Source: Acidimicrobiales bacterium (lineage in GTDB: Bacteria; Actinomycetota; Acidimicrobiia; Acidimicrobiales; Aldehydirespiratoraceae). Taken from it: a DNA stretch of 64,000 bases. This document shows, piece by piece, positions 1,520 to 51,662 of this stretch. The DNA lies in contig JAKMFW010000100.1 in the NCBI GenBank assembly GCA_022425325.1, positions 1 to 64,000 of the forward strand, given 5' to 3'. The first letter of the stretch is position 1. Every line of letters starts with the position of its first letter. The notes under the pieces were generated by a model. The model made no database searches and was not told where the DNA came from. It saw only the letters and a program-made list of their open reading frames with translations. The translations under genes and the position numbers were made by a program.

Positions 1520-1556
1520 GGCGACGATGCTACGGGCGAGCGCCGCCGGCCGCAGG

Positions 1557-2462: not shown

Positions 2463-2466
2463 CGGA

Positions 2467-2889: not shown

Positions 2890-2937
2890 GCACCCCCGAA
2901 TGAGCGATCGTCCCCGCTCGGGACGGTCCCGTGTCTA

Positions 2938-6829: not shown

Positions 6830-6941
6830 CCGGTCGGCCAGTCGCTGTGTGACCTCGACGTCGGCGGGAAGTGGGCCCGTTGGCGTCTGGACGACCGAAC
6901 TCGATTCGCATCGCCGGGGTCGGTTCGTCCACAGTTGACCG

Positions 6942-7529: not shown

Positions 7530-7623
7530 TCATCGATTCCTGGGCGCCTCCACCAGTCGAGAGGTTGGGGCGGAGCGGGAACCCCCGGTTAGCATCCGGG
7601 CGTCCCACATTCAGGAGCTCGAC

Positions 7624-9314: not shown

Positions 9315-9404
9315 CGGGCACTTCCCAGCCCAGACGGCAGGTGGTAAACCCTTTGGTGCGGGCCGTGCGTGGCGCAGCCCGTCCATCGACCTTGGGGGAT
9401 TTCG

Positions 9405-11165
9405 ATGCACGTTCATTTTGCCCGTACGAGCCTGGCGAGGCTGCTCGCCCTGCTGTTGGCCTTCGTGATGATCGCTGCGGCCTGTGGCGGGAGCGACGAC
9501 AGCGATGACAACGCTGCCGACACGCCGTCGGACAGCGACACCGGTAGCGACGAGTCGTCCGATGACGACGCTGGCGACGGCGACTCGGTCGTGCCGACCA
9601 TCACTGCGCCGGAAGAGGAGGAGGTTGCCGAGGAAGAGATCCAGCGCGGCGGCGTCCTTCGGGTCGCAATGGAGGCCGATGGCGACGGCATCAACCCGGT
9701 CGCCAACAACTTCGCGAACTCCGCCTACCTGATGGGCCAGTCGATCTTCGATCCGCTGTTCACGCTCGACCAGGACGGCAACTGGTTCCCGTATCTGGCG
9801 GAGTCCGCGAGCCCAGTTGAGGGCACGAGCTCGTGGCAGATCACGCTGCGTCAGGGGGTCACGTACCACGACGGTTCGGAGATGACCGCTGACGACATGA
9901 TTGCGGCGTTTGAGGCGCAGCTTGCCGATCCGATCATCTCGCTTGCGGTGGCTCCGTCGTTCCCGGCGGAGAACCGTGTTGAGCGGATCGATGACTACAC
10001 GGTGCAGTACAACCTGCTGCGCCCGTCGGCTCACTTCCCGACCAACCTGACCAGCCAGCTCGGCATGGTCCCGTCGGCAAGCTACATCGCCGCGGCGGCT
10101 GAGGATCCGACGATGGACCAGATGCCGATCGGGCAGGGTCCGTTCAAGATCGTCAGCCGCACCCAAGACGACAAGACCGTCGTCGAGCGCAACGAGGACT
10201 ACTGGCAGGGCACCGACAACATCTACCTCGACGGCATCGAATTCCTGCCGATCACCGACGCCGCGATCGCTGCCGAGCGTGTGGCCGCAGGAGACATTGA
10301 TCTCGTCGTGACGTCGAGTGCCGACGCAATCTTGACGCTGCGTGACGCCGAAGGTGTGAGCACCATCGAGAACGTCTACTCATCAGAGAACGACATCATG
10401 ATGAACACTCGGGCTGCGCCGTTCGACGATATCCGGGTGCGTCAGGCGCTGACCTACGCAACGGACCGTGAACGCCTCTCTTCGCTGATCAACCAGGGCA
10501 CGTCGCCGTTGGCCGACTCGATGTTCCACCCGGACCTCATCTGGAACAACCCTGACGTGGTTCAGGAGGGCAACATGCCTGAGCTGGCCGGCCCCCTGGT
10601 CGAGTCCTACTGCGCGGACGTGCCGGACAACTGCACCGACGGCAAGATCGACATGGAGCTCCAGTACTCGGGCCCGTCGGTGACTCAGACCCGTATCGCC
10701 GACATCCTCACTGCTGGTTGGGAGCCGTTCTTCAACGTCACTGAGCAGGAGTTGTTGCAGGACTCCCACATCCTTGAAGTCGCAATCGGCCAGTTCCAGG
10801 TCGTGACGTGGCGCCAGTTCGGTGCGGTCGAGCCTGACAACGAGGTTGTGTGGCTTGAGTGCGCCACCGCTGAGGGCTTCATCACGCTCAACTGGGTGCG
10901 TTGGTGCAGCCCGGAGCGCGATGAGTTGCTCTACGCCCAGCGCGCCACCGACGATCTCGACGCCCGCGTCGAGATGTGGCGTGAGATCCAGGCGGAGATG
11001 AACGAGTCCTACGCGTACATCTTCACCACCCACGCCAACTGGACCATCGGCTTCGGTGACCAGGTAAACAACCTGTGCGGACAGACCGGCCCAGGTGGAG
11101 AGACCCTGTTCTGTAACAACCAGGGACGGATGTTCTTCCACAACGTCTGGCTCGGCGAGGGCTGA
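9405..11165 (+). CDS. ABC transporter substrate-binding lipoprotein, family 5 (peptide/nickel, DppA/OppA-like)
   Basis: A signal peptide with a lipobox (IAAACGG) is followed by an acidic Ser/Asp-rich linker and then an SBP family 5 fold. I placed the start at MHVHFARTS (ATG at 9405). Confidence 0.8.
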   Translation: MHVHFARTSLARLLALLLAFVMIAAACGGSDDSDDNAADTPSDSDTGSDESSDDDAGDGDSVVPTITAPEEEEVAEEEIQRGGVLRVAMEADGDGINPVANNFANSAYLMGQSIFDPLFTLDQDGNWFPYLAESASPVEGTSSWQITLRQGVTYHDGSEMTADDMIAAFEAQLADPIISLAVAPSFPAENRVERIDDYTVQYNLLRPSAHFPTNLTSQLGMVPSASYIAAAAEDPTMDQMPIGQGPFKIVSRTQDDKTVVERNEDYWQGTDNIYLDGIEFLPITDAAIAAERVAAGDIDLVVTSSADAILTLRDAEGVSTIENVYSSENDIMMNTRAAPFDDIRVRQALTYATDRERLSSLINQGTSPLADSMFHPDLIWNNPDVVQEGNMPELAGPLVESYCADVPDNCTDGKIDMELQYSGPSVTQTRIADILTAGWEPFFNVTEQELLQDSHILEVAIGQFQVVTWRQFGAVEPDNEVVWLECATAEGFITLNWVRWCSPERDELLYAQRATDDLDARVEMWREIQAEMNESYAYIFTTHANWTIGFGDQVNNLCGQTGPGGETLFCNNQGRMFFHNVWLGEG

Positions 11166-11223
11166 TCCAAGCAAGCGGACGAATCGTCACCGGCAGCACA
11201 TCAAGATCTCGAGGAGTACGCAC

Positions 11224-12231
11224 GTGGCTCGTTTCATCGCACGCCGCGTCGTGCAGTTGATCCTGGTGTTGCTGTCGGTGACGTTCATCGCCTTCGGCGC
11301 CCTGAACTTTCTCGGCGACCCCCTCGTCAACATCGTCGGCCCGCTTGCGGCCATCGACTACTGCGACGAGGTGGAAGCGGGGCTCCGCGAGGACTCCTAC
11401 ACGTCCATCAACAACTCCAGGGGCGATTGCGAGATCATCGGTGAGGCCAAGGCTGATTTCGGTCTGGACAAGCCCGTCATTCAGCGGTACTTCACGTGGC
11501 TGGGCAACATCATCACCGGCGATCTCGGAACCTCGTTCCAGACCCAATTGCCGGTTAGTGAGATCATCGCCCAGAAGCTGCCGAAGTCACTGATGCTGAT
11601 GGTGATGGCCCAGATCATTGCGCTGGCCGTTGCGATCCCCGTTGGTGTGTATTCGGCCTATCGGGCGGGCAGAGCCGTCGATCGAGCGACCTCGGTGGCG
11701 TCGTTCGGTCTGCTCTCCATCCCGAACTTCGCGTTTGGCGTCATCGTCTTGCAGTTCTTCGCTCTGCGAAATCAATGGCTTCCCGCGTCCTTCGACGACA
11801 CGTCCATCGGAACGCGGATCCACTCACTCATCCTGCCGGCAACCGTTCTCGGTCTCGGTATCGCCGCGACCTACCAGCGCCTCCTGCGCACCGACCTCCT
11901 CACCACGTTGCAGGAGGACTTCGTGCACATGGCCCGCGCGAAGGGCATGACCGACCGTCACATCATGACCCGCCATGCGCTGCGACCCTCGCTGTTCTCA
12001 CTCATCACGGTGTTCGGCGTGAGCACCGGTGCGCTGATCGGCGGCTCGCTCGTGATCGAAGGCATCTTCTCGATTCCGGGCATCGGTTCGGAGATCGTCA
12101 CCGCCGTGGTCCGTGACGACTTCCCGGTCGTGCTCGGCTCGGTGGTCGTGATCGCAACCGGCTTCGTCGTGATCAACTTCTTCGTCGATCTCCTCTACAC
12201 CTGGCTCGATCCTCGGGTGCGTGCTTCATGA
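11224..12231 (+). CDS. ABC transporter permease (DppB/OppB-like)
   Basis: Six TM segments and the EAA-like motif (MARAKGMTDRHIMTRHALRPSL) identify it. The start GTG at 11224 follows a GAGGAG ribosome-binding site. Confidence 0.8.
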   Translation: MARFIARRVVQLILVLLSVTFIAFGALNFLGDPLVNIVGPLAAIDYCDEVEAGLREDSYTSINNSRGDCEIIGEAKADFGLDKPVIQRYFTWLGNIITGDLGTSFQTQLPVSEIIAQKLPKSLMLMVMAQIIALAVAIPVGVYSAYRAGRAVDRATSVASFGLLSIPNFAFGVIVLQFFALRNQWLPASFDDTSIGTRIHSLILPATVLGLGIAATYQRLLRTDLLTTLQEDFVHMARAKGMTDRHIMTRHALRPSLFSLITVFGVSTGALIGGSLVIEGIFSIPGIGSEIVTAVVRDDFPVVLGSVVVIATGFVVINFFVDLLYTWLDPRVRAS

Positions 12232-13118
12232 CCAACTCCGTTGCCTTCACCACCGTGGTAGATGACATCGACGACGAGGCGCTCGACGACGCCGTCAAGA
12301 AGCGGCTCGGATTCGGGTTCTGGGTCGCCATCTCCTGGATCGGGCTCGTCTCGCTCGCGGCGCTCCTCGCTCCGTGGCTGCCGATCGCTGATCCGAACGA
12401 GATCGCCAACGGTGCGCCACGCGATGGCATCCTCGGCGACAACTTTATGGGCACCGACGCGCTCGGACGCGATGTGTTTGCCCGCACGATCTGGGGAGCT
12501 CGGATTTCGCTCGGAGTTGGATTCCTCGGCATCCTTCTCGGGATCGTCGTCGGTGGTGCCATCGGGATCGCCGCCGGGTACTTCAAGGGCCTCACCGATC
12601 AGGTCATCAGTTTCGTGGTCTTCAGTCTCCTGTCGTTCCCGTCCCTCGTGCTGGCCCTGCTCATCACCGCATCGCTCAATCGCAGCTTCCTGACGGTGGC
12701 GATGACCCTCGGCATCGTCGGCATCGCCCCGATCAGTCGTCTCGCGCGCGCTACCACGATCCAGTTCGCCGAGCGCGAGTTTGTACAGGCAGCTCGAGTC
12801 ATCGGGGCCAAGAGCCGACGCATCATCATCAAGGAACTGCTGCCCAACGTTTTGGTTCCGATGGGTGCGCTCACGCTTCTCGGCATGGGTATTTCCATCG
12901 TCGCTGAGGGCGGCCTCGCCTTCCTTGGCCTCTCGGTCGAGGGTGAGGCGATCTCGTGGGGCAAGTCGATCGTCGATGGTTCCCAAACTCGCGATCTCAA
13001 CCAGAACTCGCACGTTGCCTTCGTGCCGATCTTCGCCATGTTCTTGACTGTGATGGCGCTGAACTTCGCCGGCGACCGGATCCGTGAATACACCGATGTC
13101 AGGGAGACGGCGTTCTGA
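12228..13118 (+). CDS. ABC transporter permease (DppC/OppC-like)
   Basis: It is a BPD-type TM permease. Its ATG overlaps the upstream stop. Confidence 0.8.
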   Translation: MTNSVAFTTVVDDIDDEALDDAVKKRLGFGFWVAISWIGLVSLAALLAPWLPIADPNEIANGAPRDGILGDNFMGTDALGRDVFARTIWGARISLGVGFLGILLGIVVGGAIGIAAGYFKGLTDQVISFVVFSLLSFPSLVLALLITASLNRSFLTVAMTLGIVGIAPISRLARATTIQFAEREFVQAARVIGAKSRRIIIKELLPNVLVPMGALTLLGMGISIVAEGGLAFLGLSVEGEAISWGKSIVDGSQTRDLNQNSHVAFVPIFAMFLTVMALNFAGDRIREYTDVRETAF

Positions 13119-14176
13119 TGGGCGATCCGCAGCTCACTGTTGAAGACCTTTACGTTCGCTTCCCGACCTCTCGCGGAACGGTCGAGGCCGTGAACGGCGT
13201 CAATTTCACCCTGGAGAAGGGGCAGATGCTCGGCATCGTCGGCGAGTCCGGCTCGGGCAAGTCGGTCACCGCCAAGACGCTCATGAACCTCCTGCCTCGC
13301 ACCGCCGAGGTCGACGGCAACATCACCTTCGAGGGAGACGATGTCCGAGCCGTCGCCAAGGAGCGCCGCAAGCACTTCTGGGGCGTCAAGATGACGATGG
13401 TCTTCCAGGATCCGATGACCTCGCTCAACCCGGTGAAGCGCTGCGGTGAGCAGATCACCGAAACACTCCGCTACCACCTCGGCGACGACAAGGCGACGGC
13501 CAGGAAGAAGGCCATCGACCTGCTCGAGCAGGTCGGCGTACCCGAGCCGGCCAAGCGCGTCGATCAATACCCGCACGAACTCTCCGGCGGCCTGCGGCAA
13601 CGAGTCGTGATTGCGATGGCGCTTGCCTGCGAGCCGTCGCTGTTGATCGCCGACGAACCCACGACTGCCGTCGACGTGACGGTGCAAAAGCGGCTCCTTG
13701 ATCTGCTCGACGGGCTTCGCCGTGACCGAGGCATGTCGATGATCCTCATCACCCACGACCTCGGTGTCGCCCGGGGCCGCTGCGACGACGTGGCGGTGAT
13801 GTACGGCGGCCGACTCGTCGAGCGGGCACCAACCGAAACCCTCTTCGCCGACTCCCGGCACCCGTACACCGAGGCGCTGCTGCGCACGATCCCGCGCATC
13901 GATCAGCCGAGCCACACGCGACTCGAGCCGATCGCCGGCCGCCCGCCGGAACTCATCGATCCGGCTGAGGAGTGCGCCTTCGCGCCTCGCTGCCGTTACG
14001 CCCAGCCCGACTGCCTCGGAACAATCCCTCCGGTCGGTGGCGTGAGGGGTCAACACGAATTCGCCTGCTTCCATCCGGCGAACACCGAGCGGGGACGACA
14101 AGCGCTCGATGCGAATCTCGCCGCTGGTCAGACCGTGACCGGATTGCAGATCCAGGCCAATGCGGGAGTGAACTGA
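13118..14176 (+). CDS. ABC transporter ATP-binding protein (DppD/OppD-like)
   Basis: It has Walker A (GESGSGKS), the ABC signature (LSGGLRQR), Walker B (LLIADEPTTAVD) and an oligopeptide C-terminal extension. Confidence 0.85.
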   Translation: MGDPQLTVEDLYVRFPTSRGTVEAVNGVNFTLEKGQMLGIVGESGSGKSVTAKTLMNLLPRTAEVDGNITFEGDDVRAVAKERRKHFWGVKMTMVFQDPMTSLNPVKRCGEQITETLRYHLGDDKATARKKAIDLLEQVGVPEPAKRVDQYPHELSGGLRQRVVIAMALACEPSLLIADEPTTAVDVTVQKRLLDLLDGLRRDRGMSMILITHDLGVARGRCDDVAVMYGGRLVERAPTETLFADSRHPYTEALLRTIPRIDQPSHTRLEPIAGRPPELIDPAEECAFAPRCRYAQPDCLGTIPPVGGVRGQHEFACFHPANTERGRQALDANLAAGQTVTGLQIQANAGVN

Positions 14177-15189
14177 TGGCCGGTACCGGACACGCGCCGC
14201 TGCGTGACGATCGCGACGTCCTCTTGACGGTCCGGGATCTCGAAGTCGAGTTCCCCGTGGGCCGCAACGAGGTGGTGCATGCCGTGAGCGGCATCAGCTT
14301 CGACGTTGCCGAAGGTGAGACCCTGGGCATCGTGGGTGAATCGGGTTGTGGCAAGTCCACTGTTGCCAAGTCGATCATTCGCCTCAACGACATCAAGTCC
14401 GGAAGCATCGACTACCAGGGCAACGACCTTGCGCACATGGAAGGCGAGGCGCTCCGCCAGATCCGTCCCGATCTGCAGATGATCTTCCAGGACCCGATCT
14501 CGTCGCTCAACCCGCGTCGCAAGATCCGCGACGTCATCAGCGAGGGCATCGCGGTGTGGGGCAACACGAAGGGTTCCTGGTCGCAGGAACGCGTCGAGGA
14601 ACTGATGGTCGCGGTCGGGATCGACCCGAAGTTCGGCGAACGCCGCCCGCACCAGTTCTCCGGTGGTCAGTGCCAGCGCATCGGTATCGCTCGTGCGCTC
14701 GCTCTCGATCCGAAGGTGTTGATCTGCGACGAGCCAGTGTCCGCACTCGACGTGTCGGTGCAGGCCCAAGTCCTCAACATCCTGGAGGACATGAAGGCCC
14801 GCTACGGCCTCACGTTGCTGTTCATCAGCCACGATCTCTCGGTCGTCAAGAACGTGTCCGATCGCATCATCGTGATGTACCTCGGCAAGGTCTGCGAGAT
14901 CGGCAACGCCGACGAGCTCTACGAACACCCTCGACACCCGTACACCCGTGCGCTGCTGGCGTCGATCCCTGAGCCGGCACCGACGGTCGATGTCAGCGAG
15001 AGCGACATCGAGGGTGAGCTTCCTTCGCCGATCCACCCGCCCGCAGGATGCCGGTTCAACACCCGGTGCCAGCACGCCACGGACATCTGTTTCACCGACG
15101 AACCGGTGATGCAGCAGGTCGGCGACAGCGACCACTACCTCGCCTGCCACCACCCGGTCGAGGTCTCGGTCTCGGTCGGCGAGCGCTGA
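14176..15189 (+). CDS. ABC transporter ATP-binding protein (DppF/OppF-like)
   Basis: It has Walker A (GESGCGKST), the signature (FSGGQCQR) and Walker B (VLICDEPVSALD). Its ATG at 14176 overlaps the upstream TGA. Confidence 0.85.
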   Translation: MAGTGHAPLRDDRDVLLTVRDLEVEFPVGRNEVVHAVSGISFDVAEGETLGIVGESGCGKSTVAKSIIRLNDIKSGSIDYQGNDLAHMEGEALRQIRPDLQMIFQDPISSLNPRRKIRDVISEGIAVWGNTKGSWSQERVEELMVAVGIDPKFGERRPHQFSGGQCQRIGIARALALDPKVLICDEPVSALDVSVQAQVLNILEDMKARYGLTLLFISHDLSVVKNVSDRIIVMYLGKVCEIGNADELYEHPRHPYTRALLASIPEPAPTVDVSESDIEGELPSPIHPPAGCRFNTRCQHATDICFTDEPVMQQVGDSDHYLACHHPVEVSVSVGER

Positions 15190-15201
15190 CGCCGAGGCCC
15201 G

Positions 15202-16206
15202 TCAGCGACGAACCCAGACCGTCTTCGACGACACGGTCGAGGCCCCTTCGATTGCCACCTCAACGACATCCTCGTCGTGGAGCTTGCGGAGGTGTGAGAG
15301 CACCGAGCGCGCTGCGGGTTTGTGCAGTTCCTTGCGGACATCGGCGTAGAGCACGTCGACGATGTCGCGAGCAGACTTCGGACCCGTGGCGAGTTGGGTC
15401 AGGATGCCGGCCTCGCGAGCGAGGCGATGATCGAGGAGTGCCGCCACGAACCCGTGGTGCTCTTCGACCGGAGCACCGTGGGTCGGGTAGAGCCGCCGAT
15501 CTTGGGGGCGGTCGAGCAGGACGCGCAGCGAGTCCAGATAGGCCCCAACATCGCCGTCGGGTGGCGGAATGATCGTCGTAGACCACCCCATCACATGGTC
15601 GCCGGAGAGCACGGCATGTTCCTCGTGCAATGCGAAGCACAGGTGGTTGCTGATGTGCCCGGGGGTGTGCAGCGCCTCGACGGTGTACCCAGGACCGTCG
15701 ACGACGTCGCCGTGGGCGAGTGCCGTCTCCGGATCGAAGTCGATGTCGGGTGCGTGCTTCCGTTGGAACTCCGGGTCGTCCTCGATCTGAGGCGCCTGGG
15801 TCTCGTCGCTCTCGTCGTCGCCTTCCCCCTCATCGTCGGGGTCGTCGTCGTGATCCTCACCCTCGCCGAGGGCGGTGTCAGGGTGGGGTCCGAACCCGAG
15901 CACAGGTGCGCCGGTTGCATCGGATAGTGCTGCTGCTGCAGGGGAGTGGTCGCCGTGAGTGTGGGTGATGAGGATGTGGCGAACGCGCTCACCGTCAAGC
16001 GCCTGCAACAACGCCTCGACGTGGCGTTCATCTCGTGGGCCCGGATCAACGACAGCCACGTCACCTCGGCCGATCACATAGGTGCCCGTGCCGTGGAAGG
16101 TGAACTTCGACGGGTTGCGACACACCATGCGGCGAAGCAGCGGCGAGACATTGACCATCTCGCCGTAGTGCGGTTCGAAGTCGACGATGAACATGGGTCC
16201 GGCCAT
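15202..16206 (-). CDS. MBL-fold metallo-hydrolase with an acidic insert
   Basis: The HTHGDH motif (HxHxDH) is present, followed by an acidic insert (DDDPDDEGEGDDESDE) and a downstream HTPGH motif. I placed the start at MAGPMFIVDF (cat at 16204-16206). Confidence 0.75.
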   Translation of the reverse strand: MAGPMFIVDFEPHYGEMVNVSPLLRRMVCRNPSKFTFHGTGTYVIGRGDVAVVDPGPRDERHVEALLQALDGERVRHILITHTHGDHSPAAAALSDATGAPVLGFGPHPDTALGEGEDHDDDPDDEGEGDDESDETQAPQIEDDPEFQRKHAPDIDFDPETALAHGDVVDGPGYTVEALHTPGHISNHLCFALHEEHAVLSGDHVMGWSTTIIPPPDGDVGAYLDSLRVLLDRPQDRRLYPTHGAPVEEHHGFVAALLDHRLAREAGILTQLATGPKSARDIVDVLYADVRKELHKPAARSVLSHLRKLHDEDVVEVAIEGASTVSSKTVWVRR

Positions 16207-16208
16207 GT

Positions 16209-16457
16209 TCAGGCTCCCCGGGCGTGACGGGCCTTGACCGTCTCCCGCCAGATGCGAACGGCGATGAAGGTAAGCCCAGCGAAGATCATGAAGGCCGTGA
16301 GCAGTTGGGCGTAACCGCCACGGTCGCCCGGATTCTCCGGCTTTGGTCCGGCGGCAGGCGAGCCGATGATACGGCCGGCGTCGTCGTAGTAGTCGGCGTC
16401 GCTCGAGTCCTGGGCGAGTTCGATGACCGTCGAGAGCAGGGTCATCGTGGCGCTCAT
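16209..16457 (-). CDS. Small membrane protein (82 aa) translationally coupled between the SDR and MBL genes
   Basis: The sequence MSATMTLLSTVIELAQDSSDADYYDD...LLTAFMIFAGLTFIAVRIW contains one C-terminal TM helix. Its ATG at 16457 overlaps the SDR stop (ATGA), and its stop lies 2 nt from the MBL start. Confidence 0.45.
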   Translation of the reverse strand: MSATMTLLSTVIELAQDSSDADYYDDAGRIIGSPAAGPKPENPGDRGGYAQLLTAFMIFAGLTFIAVRIWRETVKARHARGA

Positions 16458-17245
16458 GTCTGGTTGACCTCGCCGGTTGCTGCGTCGAGGTAGGCAGCCC
16501 CCTCGCCGCCACCGTCGACGGGGATCGCGCAACCGCTCATCCAGCGGGCGAGCGGTGAGACGCAGAACAGCACCACGTCGGCCACGTCAGCGGGGTCGCC
16601 CATGCGGCCGAGCGGCAACATCGCGCCGACCGCATCGATGCCGGCCTGGTCGCCGTAGAACAGGTGGGCGTCCTCGGTGACGATCATGCCGACGACCGGG
16701 GCGATCACCCGGATCTTCGGACCCCATTCGTGGGCGAGCGTTTCGGTCATATTGATCAGCCCGGCCTTCGCAGCGCCGTAGGCGACGCCCTTGGGGTTGG
16801 CCCGGGTGCCCGAGACCGAGGCGATATTGACGATGACGCCGCCATCTTCCTGTGCCTGCATGATGTCGTGCACCGCCTGGCTGAAGAGCATCGGGGCCAG
16901 CAGGTTAAGGGCGACGATTTTCTCGTTGAAGCGGGGTGAGACTGTGGCGCTCTCGGCTGGTGGCGCGCCACCGGCGTTGTTGACGAGGATGTCGACCCGA
17001 CCGGTGCGCTCGACCGCGGCGTCGACCACGGCACCGACCTGCTCCGCATCTCGAACGTCAGCGGCGACGAAGTGGGCCTCGCGTCCGCCGGCGCTTACCG
17101 GCGTCTGGGGGGCGTTTCGGGCACAGACGATCACCTCGGCGCCGTGCTCGAGAAGCGTCGTCGCAATGACCCAGCCGAGGCCCTTCGTTCCGCCGGTGAC
17201 GATCGCCGTGCGGCCGTTCAGATCGAGGGGATTGCTCACGTACAC
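16454..17245 (-). CDS. Short-chain dehydrogenase/reductase (SDR)
   Basis: It has the TGGTKGLG glycine motif, an NNAG motif and a YGAAK catalytic motif. Confidence 0.8.
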   Translation of the reverse strand: MYVSNPLDLNGRTAIVTGGTKGLGWVIATTLLEHGAEVIVCARNAPQTPVSAGGREAHFVAADVRDAEQVGAVVDAAVERTGRVDILVNNAGGAPPAESATVSPRFNEKIVALNLLAPMLFSQAVHDIMQAQEDGGVIVNIASVSGTRANPKGVAYGAAKAGLINMTETLAHEWGPKIRVIAPVVGMIVTEDAHLFYGDQAGIDAVGAMLPLGRMGDPADVADVVLFCVSPLARWMSGCAIPVDGGGEGAAYLDAATGEVNQT

Positions 17246-17724
17246 ACCTCCGTGATGGTCACGATCGCCTCGGCGAATGCGGCATCGTTCAGCGCCGCGG
17301 CGCGGGGATCGTCGACGGGGAGGTCGCTCACGACGAAGTCGATCTCGAAGAGCAACGCTTCGAAACCGGCGTAGGCATCGGTCAAGAGCCCGATTGCGTC
17401 TGTGGCCTCGTCAGGCGCAAGCGCCGCCGTCTGATCGAGAACATCGACCGTGTCGCCGAGCACCACAATGAATTCCGCCGGTGGCTCTCCGGCCATCGTC
17501 GCCAGCATGGTGCGGGCGATGTTGTCGAGGAGCATGTTGACCTGCTCGACCCCCTCGCAGAACGTCGCTGGCGGCCCAGCTGGTTCGGTGGTGGTCGTCG
17601 AGCTGGTCGAGCTCGTCGTCGTGGTGTCGGCCACGTCTCGCTCGGGGTCGGCGTCGTCGCCACACGCCGCCGTCATCCCGGCGATCGAGACGGTCAGGGT
17701 AATCAGGGCGAACGAGCGACGCAT
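17236..17724 (-). CDS. Putative lipoprotein with a Thr/Ser-rich linker
   Basis: The start was moved to MRRSFALITLTVSIAGMTAACGDD, which gives a signal peptide with a lipobox Cys. A TTTSSTSSTTTTE linker follows. Confidence 0.55.
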   Translation of the reverse strand: MRRSFALITLTVSIAGMTAACGDDADPERDVADTTTTSSTSSTTTTEPAGPPATFCEGVEQVNMLLDNIARTMLATMAGEPPAEFIVVLGDTVDVLDQTAALAPDEATDAIGLLTDAYAGFEALLFEIDFVVSDLPVDDPRAAALNDAAFAEAIVTITEVCT

Positions 17725-17795
17725 CGGAGGCGAGACTACCGCTCGGGCCGCTGATGTCGCATGGTGGGCTCCTCCCCGGGTACGGTCAGCACTGA

Positions 17796-17812
17796 TCTGA
17801 CGCATCGTCAGA
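17796..17812. promoter_or_regulatory. Palindromic operator candidate upstream of the CoA-transferase/ACAD operon
   Basis: A perfect 7-3-7 inverted repeat, TCTGACG-CAT-CGTCAGA, ends 28 bp before the ipdA-like ATG. Confidence 0.35.
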
Positions 17813-17839
17813 AACGGGCCCGACCAGAAGGGGAACGGC

Positions 17840-18703
17840 GTGGCCGACAAGCGCATGACCGAGGACGAGGTCGTCGCCGAGCTCGAGAGCGGGATGACGA
17901 TCGGGATCGGCGGTTGGGGGTCGCGCCGCAAGCCGATGTCGTTGGTGCGGGCGATCCTCCGAAGCGACCTGACCGACCTTCACATCGTGAGCTACGGCGG
18001 TCCCGATGTCGGGATCCTCACCGCCGCCGGGAAGTGCCGCAAGGTCACCTACGGCTTCGTGTCGCTCGACTCGATTCCGCTCGAACCGCACTTCCGGGCA
18101 GTGCGCCAGGGCGGTCTGCTGCCCGACTTCATGGAACTCGACGAGGGCGCCTTCTATCTCGGGTTGATGGCCGCTGCCCATCGGGTGCCCTTCTACCCGA
18201 CTCGGGCCGGCCTCGGTTCGGCCATGCTGAGCGAGAACCCCGAACTTCGCACCGTCACGTCGCCCTATGGCGACGGCGAGGAACTCGTCGCAATCCCCGC
18301 CTTCGACATGGATGCCGTGCTTCTCCACATGAACCGTGCCGACGAAAAAGGCAACGGGCAGTTCCTCGGCCCCGACCTCTACTTCGACGATCTGTTCGCG
18401 ATGGCTGGCACGAAGACCTACATGTCGGCGGAGAAGATCATCGCCACCGAGGACTTTCTCCGTGAGGGCCCGGTCCACACGCTGAAAATCCCCCGCACGC
18501 ACGTCGACGGCGTCGTCGAGGCTCCGATGGGAGCGCACTTCACGGAGTGCCCGCCCGACTACGGCCGCGATGAGGCGTTCCAGCGTGAGTACGCCGCCAC
18601 GGCCAAGGATCCCGAGGCGTGGGCGCAGTTTCGAGCCGACTGGCTCGAACTCGAATCACACGAGGCCTACCGAGCCAAGCTCGAGGAAAGGGGGCAGGCG
18701 TGA
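17840..18703 (+). CDS. CoA-transferase subunit A (family I, IpdA-like; glutaconate/3-oxoacid CoA-transferase alpha-type)
   Basis: The motif SGMTIGIGGWGSRRKPM and the overall composition resemble alpha subunits of two-component CoA-transferases, including mycobacterial IpdA, recalled from memory. Confidence 0.7.
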   Translation: MADKRMTEDEVVAELESGMTIGIGGWGSRRKPMSLVRAILRSDLTDLHIVSYGGPDVGILTAAGKCRKVTYGFVSLDSIPLEPHFRAVRQGGLLPDFMELDEGAFYLGLMAAAHRVPFYPTRAGLGSAMLSENPELRTVTSPYGDGEELVAIPAFDMDAVLLHMNRADEKGNGQFLGPDLYFDDLFAMAGTKTYMSAEKIIATEDFLREGPVHTLKIPRTHVDGVVEAPMGAHFTECPPDYGRDEAFQREYAATAKDPEAWAQFRADWLELESHEAYRAKLEERGQA

Positions 18704-19467
18704 GTGACACCACCGAAGCGACGCTTGCCGAGATCTGCATCGTCGCCCTCGCCGAGGCGTTCCGTGGCGACGGCGAGGTGCTGTGCAACCCGATGGGCCC
18801 CGTGCCGGTGATTGCCGGTCGCCTCGCCCGGGCCACGTTCGAACCCGACCTGATGCTCACCGACACGATTGCGTATGCGATCGAGGGAAATCTTCCCCTC
18901 GGTGGCGACCCGTCCGATGCCGTCGTCGAGTCGTACATGCCGTTCCGCACGATCTTTGATCAGGTCTGGTCGGGCAAGCGCCATGTCGTCATGGGAGCCC
19001 CCCAGATCGATCGCTATGGCAACCAGAACTTCGCAGCCATCGGCGACGACTATCGCAAGCCGAAGGCCCAACTGCTCGGCATGCGCGGCGCACCCGGCAA
19101 CCTGATCAACCACGCCACCACCTACTGGATCCCCACGCAGGTCCGCTCCTTCGTCGAGTCGGTCGATGTCGTCAGCGGCCCCGGTAACGACACGATCGCT
19201 TCCTTGCCCGAGGCGACCGGACGGTTCCACGAAATTCGTCGGGTCGTCACCGACCTCGGCGCCTACGACTTCGAAACCAGCGACGGCACGATGCGGGTGC
19301 GGTCGTTGCACCCGGGTGTCACGCTCGAGCAGGCGCAGGAAGCCTCGGCGTTCGAACTCACCGTGACCGGTGAGGTTCCCGAGAGCCGACTGCCCACCGA
19401 TGAGGAACGTCACCTCATCCGTGAGGTCTTCGACCCGAACGGTGTCCGAAACGGCGAGTTCCGCTGA
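18700..19467 (+). CDS. CoA-transferase subunit B (IpdB-like)
   Basis: Its GTG at 18700 overlaps the subunit-A stop (GTGA) and follows an AGGAAAGGGGG ribosome-binding site. The 255-aa size fits a beta subunit. Confidence 0.65.
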   Translation: MSDTTEATLAEICIVALAEAFRGDGEVLCNPMGPVPVIAGRLARATFEPDLMLTDTIAYAIEGNLPLGGDPSDAVVESYMPFRTIFDQVWSGKRHVVMGAPQIDRYGNQNFAAIGDDYRKPKAQLLGMRGAPGNLINHATTYWIPTQVRSFVESVDVVSGPGNDTIASLPEATGRFHEIRRVVTDLGAYDFETSDGTMRVRSLHPGVTLEQAQEASAFELTVTGEVPESRLPTDEERHLIREVFDPNGVRNGEFR

Positions 19468-20603
19468 TGGATCTCGATCTCTCGCCTCAGTACGTCGCCT
19501 TCCGCGACGAGTGCCGCCAGTGGCTGTCCGACAATCACCCTGGCCGTATCGCGTCGATGGACACGGCCGTCGGCTTCGAGGAACACCGTGCATGGGAGAA
19601 GGTCCTCTTCGACGCCGGCTGGTCGGTACCGGCCTGGCCTTCGGTGTATGGCGGCCGCGACTGCGACCTGATCGAGTGGCTGATCTACGAAGAGGAGTAC
19701 TGGCTGTCGGGCGTGCCCGGTCGGGTCAGCGCCAACGGCGTCAGCCTGCTCGCGCCCACGATCTTCAACTTCGGCACCCAGGAACAGCAGGATTTCTTCC
19801 TGCCTCGGATGGCGAGTGGTGAACACATCTGGGCCCAGGGCTGGAGTGAGCCCGAAGCGGGTTCCGACCTCGCCGGCATCAAAACCAAGGCGATCCTCGA
19901 CGGCGACGACTTCATCCTCAACGGACAGAAGACCTGGTGCTCCCGTGGTGCCTTCGCCGACTGGATCTTCTGCATCGTGCGCACCGACCCTGAGGCCGAG
20001 CGCCACCAGGGACTCACCTATCTCCTTGTGCCCGCCGAGACGCCCGGGATGGAACGGCGCCCGATCGGCCGCCTCGACGGCGAGCCGGGCTTCGCCGAAC
20101 TCTTCTTCGACGACGCCCGGGTGAGCGCCGAACACGTGCTCGGTGGTGTCGGCCAGGGGTGGGCCGTCGCGATGGCCGCCGCCGGCTCCGAACGAGGCCT
20201 CAGCCTGCGCAGCCCCGGCCGGTTCATGGCGGCTGCGGAACGCCTTCGGGCGCTGGCCGCCGACGTCACCGAACTTGACCCTCGCCTGCGAGACGAAGTG
20301 GTCGACGCATGGATCAAGGCGCAGGCCTATCGATGGAACACCTACCAGATGGCCGCCGATCTCATGGAGGGCGCCGAGATCGGCCCCGAGGCGAGCGAGG
20401 GCAAGGTCTTCTGGTCCGAACTCGACCTCGAACTCCATGCCACGGCCCTCCGGCTGATGGGGCCGATGGGCGAAGTGGCCGATGCCGGAAACGACTGGCT
20501 CGACGGTTACGTCTTCGCCCTGTCGGGCCCGATCTACGCCGGCACCAACGAGATCCAGCGCAACATCGTCGCCGAGCGGGTGCTCGGCCTTCCGAGGCGG
20601 TGA
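19467..20603 (+). CDS. Acyl-CoA dehydrogenase (first subunit of a probable heteromeric ACAD)
   Basis: It has the ACAD fold. At the C-terminus YAGTNEIQRNIVAERVLGL replaces the usual YEGT, so the position of the catalytic base is altered. Its ATG overlaps the upstream TGA. Confidence 0.8.
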   Translation: MDLDLSPQYVAFRDECRQWLSDNHPGRIASMDTAVGFEEHRAWEKVLFDAGWSVPAWPSVYGGRDCDLIEWLIYEEEYWLSGVPGRVSANGVSLLAPTIFNFGTQEQQDFFLPRMASGEHIWAQGWSEPEAGSDLAGIKTKAILDGDDFILNGQKTWCSRGAFADWIFCIVRTDPEAERHQGLTYLLVPAETPGMERRPIGRLDGEPGFAELFFDDARVSAEHVLGGVGQGWAVAMAAAGSERGLSLRSPGRFMAAAERLRALAADVTELDPRLRDEVVDAWIKAQAYRWNTYQMAADLMEGAEIGPEASEGKVFWSELDLELHATALRLMGPMGEVADAGNDWLDGYVFALSGPIYAGTNEIQRNIVAERVLGLPRR

Positions 20604-20607
20604 CGAC

Positions 20608-21585
20608 ATGAAGTTCAGCTTCACTGACGAACAGGACATGTTCCGCGACACGGTTCGCGAACTCTTCGCCGACCGATGCCCACCCGACGCGGTACGTCAG
20701 AGCTGGGACAACGACGACGGTCGAGTCCCCGGCCTGTGGGCGGCGCTCGCCGAGATGGGTGTGCTCGCCGTGCTGGCGCCCGAGGCCGCAGGTGGCCTCG
20801 GCATGAACGAGGTCGACCTCGTCCGGATCCTCGAAGAGGCCGGCTACGCAGGTGTTCCCGAGCCGCTCGTCGAACACGTTGCCGTTGCCGTCCCCGCACT
20901 GGCCGAAGCAGGTCACGCTGCCCTGGAGGCGGCAATCGCCGGCGACTCGACCATCACTCTGAACCTTTCGGGTGAGGTCATCGTCGGCGCGGCCGCCGAC
21001 GCCGTGGTTCACCGAACCGGCGACACGCTCCAGCTCGTCACCGAGTGGCAGGCCGATGAGGCGACGTCGATCGATCAGTCCCGCCGTCTCGGCGTGCTCA
21101 CCGAAATCACCGCTGCCGATCCGCTTGACGGCGCCGACCCCGAACTCGCCTTCGATCGAGCGGCGCTCGGCACGGCCGCCCAGTGCATCGGCGTGGCCCG
21201 TCGCCTCCTCGAGGCCACGGTCGAGTACGTCGGCGAGCGACATCAGTTCGGCAAACCGGTCGGTTCGTACCAGGCGGTCAAGCACCATCTCGCCAACGTG
21301 AAGATCGCCCTCGACTTTGCGGCCCCGCTCGTCTATCGAGCGGCCTGGTCGGTTGCCCACGTTGACGATCCGGTCGCCCGTGGCCGCGACGTGTCGATGG
21401 CGAAGGCACAGGCGTCGGAGGCGGTCGATCTTGCTGCTCGCCAGGCACTGCAATGTCATGGCGCTATCGGTTACACGTTCGAGTACGACCTCCAGCTGTG
21501 GCTGAAACGAGCGTGGACCCTTGCCGCCGCCCACGGCGACGTGCGGTTCCACCGTGATCGCGTCGCTGCCGCCATCGGTGTCTGA
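20608..21585 (+). CDS. Acyl-CoA dehydrogenase-like protein (second subunit)
   Basis: The start was moved to MKFSFTDEQDMFRDTV, a typical ACAD N-terminus. It has the C-terminal ACAD helices (QCHGAIGYTFEYDLQLWLKRAW) and lies 5 nt after the upstream ACAD. Confidence 0.7.
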   Translation: MKFSFTDEQDMFRDTVRELFADRCPPDAVRQSWDNDDGRVPGLWAALAEMGVLAVLAPEAAGGLGMNEVDLVRILEEAGYAGVPEPLVEHVAVAVPALAEAGHAALEAAIAGDSTITLNLSGEVIVGAAADAVVHRTGDTLQLVTEWQADEATSIDQSRRLGVLTEITAADPLDGADPELAFDRAALGTAAQCIGVARRLLEATVEYVGERHQFGKPVGSYQAVKHHLANVKIALDFAAPLVYRAAWSVAHVDDPVARGRDVSMAKAQASEAVDLAARQALQCHGAIGYTFEYDLQLWLKRAWTLAAAHGDVRFHRDRVAAAIGV

Positions 21586-21692
21586 GTTCGAACGGCTGAG
21601 TTGTGCCGTCAGATGATTCGACGCTTTCTCGCCACGAGCGAGCGCAGCGACAGCTGTCGCAAAGCCGCCAGACGACTGCCTAACCTGCCGAA

Positions 21693-22451
21693 GTGTCCGA
21701 GCAACCACTGGTCGTGATCGTGATGGCCATGGAGGCCGAGGCTGCGCCGCTTCGGGCCTCCCTCGGCGCAGCACCTGCGGTGTCACCAGACTGGGCTTCT
21801 TCGCTGCCCGTTCGTCTCGCTGTCGCCGATCATGCGGGTGTCGACGTTGTTTTGGTCACCAACGGCACCGACCCTCGCACCGGCGTCGACTGCATTGGCT
21901 CGACGGCAGCGGCCCTTGCGACACAAGTTGCCCTTGATCACACCCGAACCGGCCTTGGGCGTCGACCCGATCTCATATTGACCGTCGGCACCGCCGGTGG
22001 GTGGAACCGGGTCGGAGCGTCGATCGGCGACGTCTACCTCGCCTGGGATCGTTTCGTATGTCACGACCGCCGCATCGATCTTCCCGGCTTTGACGCCCTC
22101 GGCCGAGCCGACCTCCCCGCCGCCGACCTGCGAGGTCACGCCGACGCTCTCGGTTGTCGGCTCGGGGTTGTCACAACCGGCGACAGCCTCGATGAGTCGC
22201 CGGAGGACGCAGCGCGAATCCTGGCCTCGGGTGCCGAGGTGAAAGAGATGGAGGCGGCCGCCGTCGCCTGGATCGGTTCGCTGCATGACGTGCCGGTCGG
22301 TGCCGTGAAGGCCATCACGGACCTGGTCGACTCGCCGGTCGCCACGGCCGAACAGTTCAGCGCCAATCTGGCGACGGCTGCTGATGCATTGCAGCGCACC
22401 ACGCTGGCCCTGCTCGCCCGTCTCGGCGAAGAGATCGGCGCCGACGTCTGA
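21693..22451 (+). CDS. Nucleosidase of the PNP/MTAN family (MTA/SAH nucleosidase or futalosine hydrolase-like)
   Basis: The N-terminus VVIVMAMEAEAAPL and the GxAGG region (VGTAGGW) are typical of PNP_UDP_1 nucleosidases. Confidence 0.6.
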   Translation: MSEQPLVVIVMAMEAEAAPLRASLGAAPAVSPDWASSLPVRLAVADHAGVDVVLVTNGTDPRTGVDCIGSTAAALATQVALDHTRTGLGRRPDLILTVGTAGGWNRVGASIGDVYLAWDRFVCHDRRIDLPGFDALGRADLPAADLRGHADALGCRLGVVTTGDSLDESPEDAARILASGAEVKEMEAAAVAWIGSLHDVPVGAVKAITDLVDSPVATAEQFSANLATAADALQRTTLALLARLGEEIGADV

Positions 22452-23056
22452 TGGCCAGTGACGACGCCCTCGCCGACGAGCTCCGGTCGCTCGCCCGGAC
22501 CCTCCATGAGACGGTGACCGATGACGAGCGTCGAGTCACCGCCCTCGACCTGCTGCGCGAGGCCAATGCGCTGCTCGCCACCGGCGAACGGCGCCTCCGT
22601 TGGTACGAGGTCGAGACCGATGGTGACGGCCGACGGGCTCGTACCCGCGAGCTCTCGGCCTTCTCGGGAACGATCAACGCGGTCGCACCACCGATGCGGA
22701 TCGAGCAAGGGGAGCGAAACGGTTCGCCGTGCCTGCTCGGGCATGTCCGTCTTTCGCGGCTGCGTGAGGGGCCTCCCGAAAGTGTTCACGGCGGCGTGAT
22801 GGCGGGCCTGTTCGACGAACTGATGGGAGCTGCGCAGAGCCTGACCGGGCGCCCCGGTGGGGTCACCGGCCGTTTGACCATCCGCTACCGCGACCTGACG
22901 CCGCTCGATACCGACCTGGTCTTTCGATGCTGGGTCGAACGCGATCGAGGGATGCGCGTCGATATGCGAGCCGAGTGCGTGCGTGCCGACACGCTCGACG
23001 CCGATGCACCCGTCCGCACCGCCGAGGCCGAGGCGATCTTCGTGAGGCGCCAATGA
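22451..23056 (+). CDS. PaaI-like hotdog-fold thioesterase
   Basis: The HGG motif (VHGGVMAGLFDE) marks a 4HBT/PaaI fold. Its ATG overlaps the upstream stop. Confidence 0.55.
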   Translation: MASDDALADELRSLARTLHETVTDDERRVTALDLLREANALLATGERRLRWYEVETDGDGRRARTRELSAFSGTINAVAPPMRIEQGERNGSPCLLGHVRLSRLREGPPESVHGGVMAGLFDELMGAAQSLTGRPGGVTGRLTIRYRDLTPLDTDLVFRCWVERDRGMRVDMRAECVRADTLDADAPVRTAEAEAIFVRRQ

Positions 23057-25857: not shown

Positions 25858-27006
25858 TCAGGTGGTGAGTTGGTGCTGTTCGGGTGGTGAAGCGGCCCGG
25901 TAGGGCTGTCTTCTTCGGCGTCGCCGGGGGTCGCCTCGGTTGCCACGATGGGCGTGACCGTGGCAGGTGTGGCAGAGGAGTTCGAGGTTGGGGAGGTCGG
26001 TGCCGCCACCGTCGAGCCATTCGTGGAGGTGGTGGGCTTGGCAGCGGTCGATGGTGGCGCCGCAGCGGTTGCAGCCTCGGGTAGCGACGATCAAGGCACG
26101 CCACTGGGCTTCGGTGGCGAGCCGCTTCCGACGTCCTTGCCAGAGGGTGTGTCCGGCGCCGTCGAAGAGGTGCCCGATGACGTCGGCTGAGGGTCCGAGT
26201 TGCATGAGGACGGAGTCGGGGAGGGGTGTGCCGTCGAGCCAGGTGGCTGCTGGTTCGTCAAGGTTCCAGACGATGTGGACTTGATGCTTGGGGTGTACCG
26301 GGCCGTCCGTTGACTCTTCGCAGATCAACTCGGCCAAGGCATCGGCCCGGCGTTGGGAATGTGTGCGCACATCGTCGGGGGAGCCGTTGCGGCCGCCGTC
26401 GTCGTGCCACATGTGGTCGGTGCGTCGTCGCCACGCGGCGAGGACCTGTTCGCCGGTGGCGTTGTCGAATCGTGCGTGGATCTCGACCGAGCCGTCGCCA
26501 TGGGTCGTGTGCCAGCCCGCTCGACGGGCTCGCTGCTTCGCGTGGCGTTCTTCGGCCTCGGCCGCCGACGTGTGCTTGCCCACGAACTCGCGAGCCTTAC
26601 GTGCGAACAGATCGGCCGGCATCGCCTCGGCCGTCTTCACCAACGCCTGTGCGATCTCGGGCGTCACGTGTTCGGCCGCGTCGGCGATGATCGCCGCGTG
26701 CTCAACGTTGAGCCGCCCCTCGGCCAGCGATTCGGCCAAGGCCGGCATCTCGGCCAGCCCTCGAGCGGTGACCATGTCCTTCTTCGCTTGCCGCTCCGAG
26801 CGCCGCCCGACCGAACGGCCCACGACAGCCGAGTCGGCGCCGGCATCGCCGAGCGAATCGAGTGCGGCCTTGGCGGCCATCAACCGCTCGTCAACCCGGG
26901 ACCGGACCCGTTCGAGATCCGAGATCAGGCTGTACAGCTCGCGGCGCGACAGCGGCCGAGGATCGATCCCCTTCAACCCTTCGTGCACGCTCGCCAACTC
27001 GACCAC
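25858..27006 (-). mobile_element. HNH endonuclease with a DUF222 domain (REP13E12-like mobile gene)
   Basis: A DUF222-like N-terminal region is followed by a C-terminal HNH motif (CNRCGATIDRCQAHHLHEWLDGGGTDLPNLELLCHTCHGHAH). The gene lies between murA and the nfu-like gene on the opposite strand. Confidence 0.75.
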
Positions 27007-49975: not shown

Positions 49976-50046
49976 GACAGGTCTCCACGTGAGATCGAAC
50001 GCACGAATGCTACCGATCGACATGTGTTTCGTAAATGGACATATGT

Positions 50047-50073
50047 GCAACGTTGCGTCCCGATATCTGCAAC
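50047..50073. promoter_or_regulatory. Candidate IlvY operator (LTTR box) in the ilvY-ilvC divergent promoter region
   Basis: There is a perfect palindrome GCAACGTTGC at 50047-50056 and a further TGCAAC half-site at 50068-50073. Confidence 0.4.
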
Positions 50074-50082
50074 GATGGACGA

Positions 50083-51563: not shown

Positions 51564-51662
51564 CGCCGGAACCATAGTCGGACATGCCGCGCATGCGAAC
51601 GAATCGATGCGCTCCACGCAGCGCCGGTCTCCGGTCGCTCGGGTAGCGTCGGGATCGTGACC

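Follow-up and report, generated by a model that had tools for sequence, protein, structure and literature searches.

The 64-kb window analysed here (contig JAKMFW010000100.1 of an Acidimicrobiales bacterium, G+C about 66%) carries a four-gene operon, ipdA-ipdB-fadE31-fadE32, that probably belongs to a reduced, functional gene set for degradation of the steroid C and D rings (HIP), a known pathway in variant form, with an operator specific to the lineage. The reading draws on orthology, active-site signatures, synteny, selection and the conservation of the operator-like palindrome upstream of ipdA. A sequence-only reading of the same DNA had noted a resemblance to the steroid C/D-ring genes of the KstR2 regulon; the resemblance is real and stronger than claimed. 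Three short-chain dehydrogenase/reductase (SDR) genes of the window also have counterparts in that set. IpdAB is a virulence-linked, mechanistically unusual ring-opening hydrolase and, to our knowledge, is known almost only from steroid degraders.

The candidate IpdAB and FadE31/FadE32 operon

The operon occupies positions 17840-21585 of the forward strand, where all four predicted open reading frames (ORFs) are present. The first two genes encode CoA-transferase-like subunits A (17840-18703, GTG start, ~287 aa, Pfam CoA_trans) and B (18700-19467, ~255 aa, a weak CoA_trans match), the orthologue candidates of ipdA (alpha subunit) and ipdB (beta subunit). They are followed by two acyl-CoA dehydrogenase (ACAD) genes, ACAD1 (19467-20603), with all three ACAD domains and a FadE31-type, ScdM1-like alpha subunit as its putative product, and ACAD2 (20608-21585), with the N- and C-terminal ACAD domains only and a FadE32-type, ScdM2-like beta subunit as its putative product. 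The tight coupling described earlier was borne out, with two corrections: the ipdA/ipdB junction is the GTGA overlap reported, whereas ipdB and ACAD1 overlap by 1 nt in TGATG (19465-19469) rather than in ATGA, and ACAD1 and ACAD2 are separated by a 4-nt spacer rather than by 5 nt.

Both transferase-like subunits and both ACADs were compared, by bit score, with all solved structures. Subunit A matched the IpdA proteins of Rhodococcus jostii and Mycobacterium tuberculosis at 294-306 bits (E ~1e-90), the top match being R. jostii IpdA (6co6_A, 306 bits, E 2e-90), against 83 bits for GctA and less than 25 bits each for ScoA and AtoD. Subunit B scored 227-239 bits against IpdB (6co6_B, 239 bits, E 4e-70) and 48 bits against GctB. 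Two reference clusters served for comparison of gene order, that of Novosphingobium aromaticivorans pNL2 (L007; loci are cited by L numbers), ordered as Comamonas CNB-2 1276-1289, and that of Nocardia farcinica (L010), read with the M. tuberculosis order ipdF-fadE30 / fadD3-fadE31-fadE32-fadE33. The Comamonas order is ipdA, ipdB, ipdC, echA20, fadE31, fadE32, fadA6, Rv3548c, fadE33, fadE30, ipdF (Table 1, PMC5380842). The window pair is 50-55% identical to that of N. farcinica (ipdA 55%, ipdB 50%) and 42-55% identical to that of pNL2, ipdA again at 55%.

IpdAB proteins lack the catalytic Glu of class I transferase beta subunits, the corresponding position in RHA1 being Gly57-beta (Crowe et al. 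2017, PMC5380842). In subunit B of the window a Thr aligns with Gly57-beta of 6co6_B, and no conserved Glu occurs in this column among 74 orthologues. Among 76 alpha-subunit orthologues, conservation of E99 and of D101-E102-G103 is at least 97%, and E99 and E102 each align with Glu residues of 6co6_A. The proposed likeness to IpdAB therefore holds: with IpdAB far ahead in scores and the transferase Glu missing, the pair is best regarded as IpdAB orthologue candidates, not as glutaconate or 3-oxoacid transferases. The reference system, the COCHEA-CoA ring-C hydrolase IpdAB (Rv3551/Rv3552; RHA1 IpdAB, PDB 6CO6/6CON; ScdL1L2 of Comamonas testosteroni), shares with the window two subunits of like size, the missing beta Glu, the alpha acidic motif and an Rv3549c-like SDR encoded divergently. 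Unlike in that system, the window genes are not beside echA20 or ipdC, and their host is a marine member of the Acidimicrobiia with a genome of ~2.8 Mb and no KstR2 control.

The nearest solved relatives of ACAD1 are ChsE4 (164 bits) and Thermomonospora curvata IpdE1 (160 bits), both from alpha2beta2 steroid ACADs, and that of ACAD2 is IpdE2. As in the beta subunits of alpha2beta2 ACADs, ACAD2 has no middle-domain Pfam match, in agreement with the heteromeric architecture suggested before. The C-terminal motif of ACAD1, IYAGTNEIQRN, does carry YAGT in place of YEGT, as the sequence-only reading had noticed; the catalytic base itself does not appear to be lost. Residue E242, in the ERG motif of helix G, aligns with the ChsE4 catalytic base E247, and YAGT thus points to a relocated base rather than a dead enzyme. 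Both ERG and IYAGTNEIQRN are conserved across FadE31 orthologues, and the helix-G Glu and the Ala in YxGT are shared with the alpha2beta2 family (ChsE4-ChsE5, 4X28; IpdE1-IpdE2, 6WY8).

FadE identities were assigned by gene position in N. farcinica and pNL2. ACAD1 is 55.6% identical to N. farcinica fadE31 against 41.8% to fadE30, and 54% against 39% for the equivalent pNL2 positions. ACAD2 is 40% identical to N. farcinica fadE32 over its full length, with a partial match to fadE33, and 39% identical to pNL2 at the fadE32 position against 33% at the fadE33 position. The best matches are thus fadE31 and fadE32 positions at 40-56% identity, which argues against a grouping with generic short-chain enzymes and assigns the two, as putative orthologues, to FadE31/FadE32, the dehydrogenase of the methyl-oxo-dicarboxyl-CoA intermediate MOODA-CoA, not to FadE30/FadE33. 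The adjacent alpha and beta genes resemble FadE31-FadE32 (Rv3562/Rv3563) and ScdM1M2; unlike at those loci, the window pair lies directly behind ipdAB in the same operon, without fadE33, fadD3 or an ScdN hydratase gene alongside, and ACAD2 is only 39-40% identical to the FadE32 references. ScdM1M2 and FadE31/32 act on MOODA-CoA (bioRxiv 10.1101/2021.06.08.447645; PMC6678751), which arises by thiolysis once IpdAB has opened the ring (PMC5380842; PMC6678751; bioRxiv 10.1101/2021.06.08.447645). With a FadE31/32 substrate derived from the IpdAB product, the operon would therefore couple ring-C opening with a soon-following step.

A conserved palindrome in the ipdA promoter region

A perfect 7-3-7 palindrome, TCTGACGcatCGTCAGA, lies at 17796-17812 and ends 28 bp before the ipdA GTG, exactly where it had been described. 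The sequence is unique in the window, in which searches allowing up to three mismatches, or for CTGAC-N5-GTCAG, gave no further copies beyond those in shuffled sequence; a single 15-17 bp match in the window is not significant alone. Its significance comes from conservation across species. The consensus CTGACRnnnYGTCAG is found upstream of ipdA, amid diverged flanks, in each of the 20 loci of the window clade (group 1) whose sequence covers that region, its distance from the mapped start of the ipdA match being 33-73 nt. A -10-like hexamer, TACGGT (TAnnnT), is found at 17781-17786 (+), and group 1 species retain TACGGT or TACCGT, a few to ~15 nt before the palindrome. Both forms fit the actinobacterial TAnnnT -10, and the hexamer may serve as promoter element. 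Transcription of both divergent operons, ipdA on one side and the Rv3549c-like SDR on the other, is probably controlled at the candidate operator CTGACRnnnYGTCAG, just downstream of TACGGT.

The idea that further copies might define a regulon fared differently inside and outside the window: the palindrome does not recur within it, whereas it does recur in the ipdA promoters of relatives and in other HIP-gene promoters. It lies between the Rv3549c-like SDR and echA20 in L053, L056, L063 and L072, upstream of the Rv3548c-like SDR in L063 and between two SDR genes in L052. Further sites occur upstream of echA20 in L052 (8957), between an AMP-binding (acyl-CoA ligase) gene and echA20, and in L063 (17992), between a family III CoA-transferase gene and a luciferase-like gene. 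Overall, CTGACRnnnYGTCAG has 32 matches in 1.47 Mb, against ~4 expected from a base-composition estimate, most of them in HIP-gene promoter regions. The L063 17992 and L052 8957 sites hint at more regulon members in Acidimicrobiia. Around the motif sites of L052, L063, L072 and L053 the neighbouring genes code for enzymes and transporters, with no DNA-binding protein among them.

KstR2 genes and their motif were confined to loci of Actinomycetes, and the palindrome almost entirely to those of Acidimicrobiia; in no locus did the palindrome occur together with KstR2 or its motif. The KstR2 operator is reportedly AnCAAGnnCTTGnT (Kendall et al. 2010). Nothing near the cluster matches it; KstR2-bearing loci have the motif, and all palindrome-bearing loci lack it. 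The KstR operator, reportedly TnnAACnnGTTnnA (Kendall et al. 2007), has one match in the window, at 52753 in an unrelated region, and none near the cluster. The palindrome was rejected as a KstR2 or KstR operator, the motifs being different, and the new motif appears to replace KstR2 and its operator in Acidimicrobiia. Orthologue candidates of seven members of the KstR2 regulon, the HIP catabolon of Mycobacterium and Rhodococcus, lie inside 15 kb of window sequence (Rv3548c, Rv3549c, ipdA, ipdB, ipdF, fadE31 and fadE32). Unlike that regulon, the window has neither a KstR2 gene nor a KstR2 operator, carries another palindrome and a local KstR-like TetR regulator, and is missing echA20, ipdC, fadA6, fadD3, fadE30 and fadE33.

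An RNA hairpin was also considered and rejected. Changes at the inner pair of the palindrome arms (G to A in one arm, C to T in the other) are uncompensated, which favours protein binding to the DNA, and promoters in both directions share the site; Rfam gave no match over 15000-22000. A scan of intergenic regions for sigma-70 promoters and terminators returned nothing, as expected at 66% GC. A single half-site, CGTCAGA (21606-21613), lies downstream of fadE32, in the 107 bp that separate it from the nucleosidase gene, and is probably there by chance.

Layouts in related genomes and the neighbourhood of the operon

Contigs of up to 2.83 Mb that share 95-96% DNA identity with the window encode the very same IpdA protein. 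The relatives are metagenome-assembled genomes (MAGs) of Acidimicrobiales / Acidimicrobiaceae, many from Tara Oceans, and the lineage is marine and planktonic; to judge by sample names, some of the material may come from reefs. A scan of species-representative genomes, in which the best IpdA match was 98% identical, gave 75 loci, which were annotated by best match to reference proteins and form a graded series. Actinomycetes (IpdA ~56-69% identical) hold full clusters with KstR2, and freshwater and other Acidimicrobiia (~60-69%) mostly hold fadE30-ipdF together with an SDR gene divergent from echA20-ipdA-ipdB-ipdC. Marine sister lineages (Ca. Poriferisocius and Tara MAGs, 72-79%) have an SDR gene divergent from ipdA-ipdB-ipdC-fadE31-fadE32-4HBT-LMWPc-AzlCD, with no echA20 nearby; the window clade (group 1, ~20 species, at least 86%) has the sister layout minus ipdC. 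Some Ca. Aldehydirespirator genomes (~78%) have only the divergent SDR gene and ipdAB. The series thus runs from the full cluster through echA20-ipdABC, ipdABC-fadE31/32 and ipdAB-fadE31/32 to ipdAB alone, the association of echA20 and ipdC with ipdAB being present in the more distant Acidimicrobiia and in Actinomycetes.

The sister marine operon (L009, L086-L089) matches the window in gene order, flanks and divergent SDR; a metallo-beta-lactamase (MBL)-fold gene with a winged helix lies on the SDR side, adjacent in Ca. Poriferisocius and several kb off in the Tara MAGs. Between the window and Ca. Poriferisocius (L009), IpdA is 77% and FadE31 69% identical. Unlike the window clade, the sister lineages keep ipdC between ipdB and fadE31 and, except for L030, have no palindrome in the ipdA promoter, whereas a nucleosidase gene and a lipoprotein gene were added in the window clade. 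The marine operon most likely began as ipdA-ipdB-ipdC-fadE31-fadE32. Because the sister lineages hold ipdC in the same slot, the gene was most likely lost in the window clade, by a clean deletion; the one-base overlap of ipdB and fadE31 leaves no room for a remnant. The paralogous pathway that the sequence-only reading had entertained is not supported, the genes being orthologue candidates in a reduced cluster whose slot for ipdC is still filled in sister lineages.

In pairwise comparisons with nine group 1 species, with synonymous differences of up to 0.6-0.7 per site, the ratio of nonsynonymous to synonymous change (dN/dS) was 0.03-0.12 for ipdA, 0.02-0.12 for ipdB, 0.02-0.14 for fadE31 and 0.08-0.20 for fadE32. 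At otherwise conserved sites the ipdC-less clade has few, conservative clade-specific substitutions. With dN/dS low and the substitutions few and conservative, the enzymes appear to be maintained by purifying selection, their active site bearing no sign of change. Four Acidimicrobiia-type ipdAB loci (L038, L049, L055, L061) are recorded as delta proteobacterium, Bifidobacterium breve, Spirochaetaceae or Acidobacteria, likely through binning or labelling errors, or by horizontal transfer.

Homologues of ipdC, echA20, fadD3, fadA6, fadE30 and fadE33 were not found across the 64 kb of the window, the extent that these absences cover for this genome; the lack of ipdC, fadD3 and echA20 had been recorded correctly before. 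A protein search with Ca. Poriferisocius IpdC, followed by inspection of the context of four IpdC clusters, returned in-operon copies from sister lineages throughout, a result that neither proves nor excludes a relocated copy. The search for relatives of echA20 was uninformative, its matches all being at least 84% identical to the query and never reaching the window clade.

Upstream of the operon, the TetR gene, the two adjacent SDR genes and the further SDR/MBL pair reported from the sequence-only reading are all present. The TetR-family regulator (6942-7529, +; Pfam TetR_N and TetR_C_20) has M. tuberculosis KstR as its best solved relative, at 104 bits (E 8e-29) over its full length, against 26 bits for KstR2; it is KstR-like, not KstR2-like. 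A GATTCGC followed by a CCACA(C/G)T-like stretch lies upstream of this gene in five species (window 6900-6915; L017, L019, L021, L023), with a similar GATTCC between the TetR gene and the first SDR gene (7533-7540); the element may be the regulator's own operator, unrelated to the ipdA palindrome. The first SDR (7624-8541, +) is Rv3548c-like and shares 38% identity with the SDR that adjoins echA20-ipdA in N. farcinica and 35% with the pNL2 SDR at the Rv3548c position. Its start is corrected to the ATG at 7624 by alignment and an AGGAG ribosome-binding site. The second (8538-9314, +) is an IpdF-like member of the 5-OH-HIC-CoA / ring-ketone oxidoreductase family, 63-64% identical to ipdF-position genes of N. 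farcinica (next to fadE30) and pNL2. TetR and the two SDRs are syntenic in four related species.

A peptide/oligopeptide ABC transporter operon (9369-15189, +; Pfam SBP_bac_5, BPD_transp_1 twice, and ABC_tran with oligo_HPY twice) separates these genes from the MBL gene, the interruption that had been pointed out before. In L017, L019 and L021 the second SDR gene abuts the MBL gene with no transporter between, and the transporter is therefore a lineage-specific insertion in a once-contiguous neighbourhood, outside the pathway. In L001-L004 (positions 1-3330) the SBP_bac_5 gene is tandemly duplicated, the copies being 92-94% identical in DNA to the single window copy (9369-11165); where these strains carry the extra copy, the window carries the TetR-SDR-SDR unit.

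The minus-strand genes form one coupled operon, divergent from ipdA across a 115-bp intergenic region. Closest to ipdA is a small lipoprotein-like gene (17236-17724, signal peptide and Cys, sequence MRRSFALITLTVSIAGMTAAC..., no Pfam match), which stands first in the divergent operon in the closest relatives alone (L001, L011-L014, L016, L024); elsewhere in group 1, no homologue was detected between the SDR gene and the ipdA promoter in the loci examined. It is followed by an Rv3549c-like SDR (16454-17245), which passes the NCBIfam equivalog PRK07856 (335 bits, cut-off 255), has 48% identity with the SDR beside echA20 in N. farcinica and 54% with the pNL2 SDR upstream of ipdA, and in almost every Acidimicrobiia locus is encoded divergently from ipdA or echA20. 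An 82-aa ORF (16209-16457), ATGA-coupled to the SDR gene and called in related contigs, has no family match; it is conserved in group 1 and fast-evolving (dN/dS up to 0.6). The last gene encodes an MBL-fold hydrolase with a C-terminal winged helix (15202-16206; Pfam Lactamase_B and BLACT_WH), LACTB2-like, with human LACTB2 as its best solved relative (101 bits). It is kept beside the SDR gene in group 1 and group 2 loci, and we know of no role for the protein in the pathway. On the other flank, a hotdog-fold protein (22451-23056, +; Pfam 4HBT) is the syntenic partner downstream of fadE32. Its gene lies directly 3' of fadE32 in sister marine lineages, whereas in group 1 loci, the window included, a PNP_UDP nucleosidase gene sits between the two; participation of the 4HBT protein in the pathway is conceivable on synteny.

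The remaining window genes examined are housekeeping genes (nucleosidase, MurA-like, IscS, MnmA, LigA, GatAB, IlvBNC, trehalose). A DUF222 and HNH endonuclease gene (25858-27006, -), between the MurA-like gene and NifU, is present in L001-L003 and replaced by two small unrelated ORFs in L004, and looks like a strain-variable mobile HNH element. Adjacent alpha/beta-hydrolase and Old Yellow Enzyme-type Oxidored_FMN genes (56232-58219, +) lie 35 kb from the operon; the ene-reductase could in principle replace the lost IpdC, and no link to the operon was seen. A 473-aa cupin with a Pfam DMSP_lyase match (~50973-52394, -), which fits a marine origin, adjoins a divergent LysR gene (50035-50979, +). 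A PemK-family toxin gene (~46512-46835, -) lies between an ABC-F-type ATPase gene and ilvN, with no called antitoxin partner.

Predicted pathway, alternatives and implications

In the reduced steroid C/D-ring pathway that we favour, IpdAB, which has a CoA-transferase fold, would act by orthology as a hydrolase that opens ring C. After thiolysis, a FadE31-FadE32 heterotetramer would dehydrogenate an intermediate of the MOODA-CoA type. The divergent operon and the TetR-SDR-SDR unit would supply Rv3549c-, Rv3548c- and IpdF-like dehydrogenases, predicted to serve ring-ketone and 3-hydroxyacyl-CoA steps. Repression would take place at the lineage-specific operator, which overlaps the predicted transcription start, and the physiological substrate may come from enzymes encoded elsewhere in the genome or may be taken up as a late intermediate.

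Several observations weigh against this proposal. None of the four operon proteins has a passing NCBIfam equivalog, and the IpdE2 model, the top NCBIfam match of ACAD2, reaches a score of 177 where 450 is the cut-off. That model scores reference FadE32- and FadE33-position proteins alike (142-203), without separating them, and is therefore uninformative outside Mycobacteriales; no curated FadE31/32 equivalog model was matched in NCBIfam. The products of echA20 and ipdC make the canonical IpdAB substrate, and neither gene occurs within 10 kb of the locus in any of the ~20 closest species; nor does a clear orthologue of fadD3, fadA6, fadE30 or fadE33, four of these loci having a weak FadE30-like ACAD at 40-43% identity. 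With these six genes missing, the canonical pathway is not reconstructable from the locus alone. Glu105 of the alpha subunit is reportedly catalytic (Crowe et al. 2018), and E99 or E102 may correspond to it in the window. No copy of the palindrome precedes the TetR-SDR genes; the repressor that would bind it is putative, and the activities and ligands of the enzymes in this lineage are predictions from sequence.

Two alternatives also start from genuine IpdAB and FadE31/32 enzymes. In one, to which we assign somewhat less than an even chance, the clade no longer processes bicyclic HIP and uses IpdAB, FadE31/32 and the SDRs as a scavenging or retooled module for monocyclic compounds, such as oxo-cyclohexene-carboxylates, or MOODA-like diacids, imported as late fragments of steroids that other bacteria leak or derived from non-steroid cyclic isoprenoids. 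The stable architecture without ipdC and echA20, under purifying selection in ~20 species, fits such a module, as do the further-reduced relatives that retain only an SDR and ipdAB and the fact that, among characterised proteins, IpdF is closest to a cyclic-ketone (levodione) reductase (PMC5380842). However, genes for the import or CoA ligation of such compounds are not linked to the operon, the neighbouring ABC transporter, of peptide type, was inserted late, the IpdAB residues are essentially those of canonical enzymes, and the proposed chemistry is conjectural. In the other, which we regard as rather unlikely, the organism is an ordinary HIP/steroid degrader with its echA20, ipdC-type reductase, fadD3, fadA6 and fadE30/33 genes elsewhere on the ~2.8-Mb chromosome, the locus being one regulon island of a dispersed, complete pathway. 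The KstR2-regulon genes of N. farcinica are indeed split between distant loci, ~29 kb apart, the lack of radical IpdAB substitutions suggests the same substrate, and L052 and L063 each have the operator at several promoters, so that a dispersed regulon would be normal in the class. Against this, sister marine lineages hold ipdC in the operon in every abundant marine IpdC cluster checked, and no relocated copy surfaced in those checks. A bolder version of the retooled module, which we consider unlikely, is a self-contained, echA20/ipdC-independent pathway of IpdAB, FadE31/32 and the three SDRs in abundant marine planktonic Acidimicrobiia, under a repressor recognising TCTGACRnnnYGTCAGA; its inputs would be monocyclic oxo-cyclohexene-carboxyl or methyl-oxo-diacid compounds, which could be late steroid fragments released by other degraders or pieces of cyclic isoprenoids or carotenoids.

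Readings that deny the operon a specialised role fare far worse. Generic acyl-CoA metabolism, with a glutaconate/3-oxoacid CoA transferase and ordinary short-/medium-chain ACADs, is suggested by the bare Pfam domains (CoA_trans and Acyl-CoA_dh) and by the database names of relatives ('glutaconate CoA-transferase', 'acetate/3-ketoacid CoA transferase'), and yet is highly improbable given the IpdAB scores of 306/239 bits against 83/48 for GctAB and <25 for ScoA/AtoD, the missing transferase Glu, the heteromeric alpha/beta ACADs with their fadE31/32 matches at 40-56% identity, and synteny with ipdC, echA20 and ipdF across phyla. A locus in decay, left over from a lost steroid pathway and now without function, would suit the stepwise gene loss across lineages; with all ORFs intact, dN/dS of 0.02-0.2 across synonymous divergence up to saturation, and operator and ribosome-binding site conserved, we give this possibility the least credence.

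The protein families and the chemistry are all already known. We found no description of HIP-type clusters in Acidimicrobiia in the literature searched, and the lineages listed by Holert et al. 2018 (PMC5790920) are all from Actinobacteria or Proteobacteria, with Acidimicrobiia unmentioned. What is new is an ipdC-less operon across ~20 species, a stepwise reduction series and a conserved operator in the apparent place of KstR2 control. One caution follows for environmental surveys: ipdAB matches in ocean metagenomes should not be taken as evidence of complete steroid catabolism.

The reduced gene set suggests that widespread marine Acidimicrobiia keep ipdAB and fadE31/32 under strong constraint after the loss of ipdC, while related lineages strip the set to ipdAB and one SDR. 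If the echA20/ipdC-free pathway were real, the chemistry of IpdAB would no longer be tied to steroid catabolism proper, and an ocean lineage not yet in culture would have yielded a new regulon. The conserved operator offers a handle for finding the Acidimicrobiia counterpart of KstR2 and its regulon, and the lineages together form a natural series for asking what a minimal IpdAB module is for, whether cross-feeding on late steroid fragments or a non-steroid substrate.

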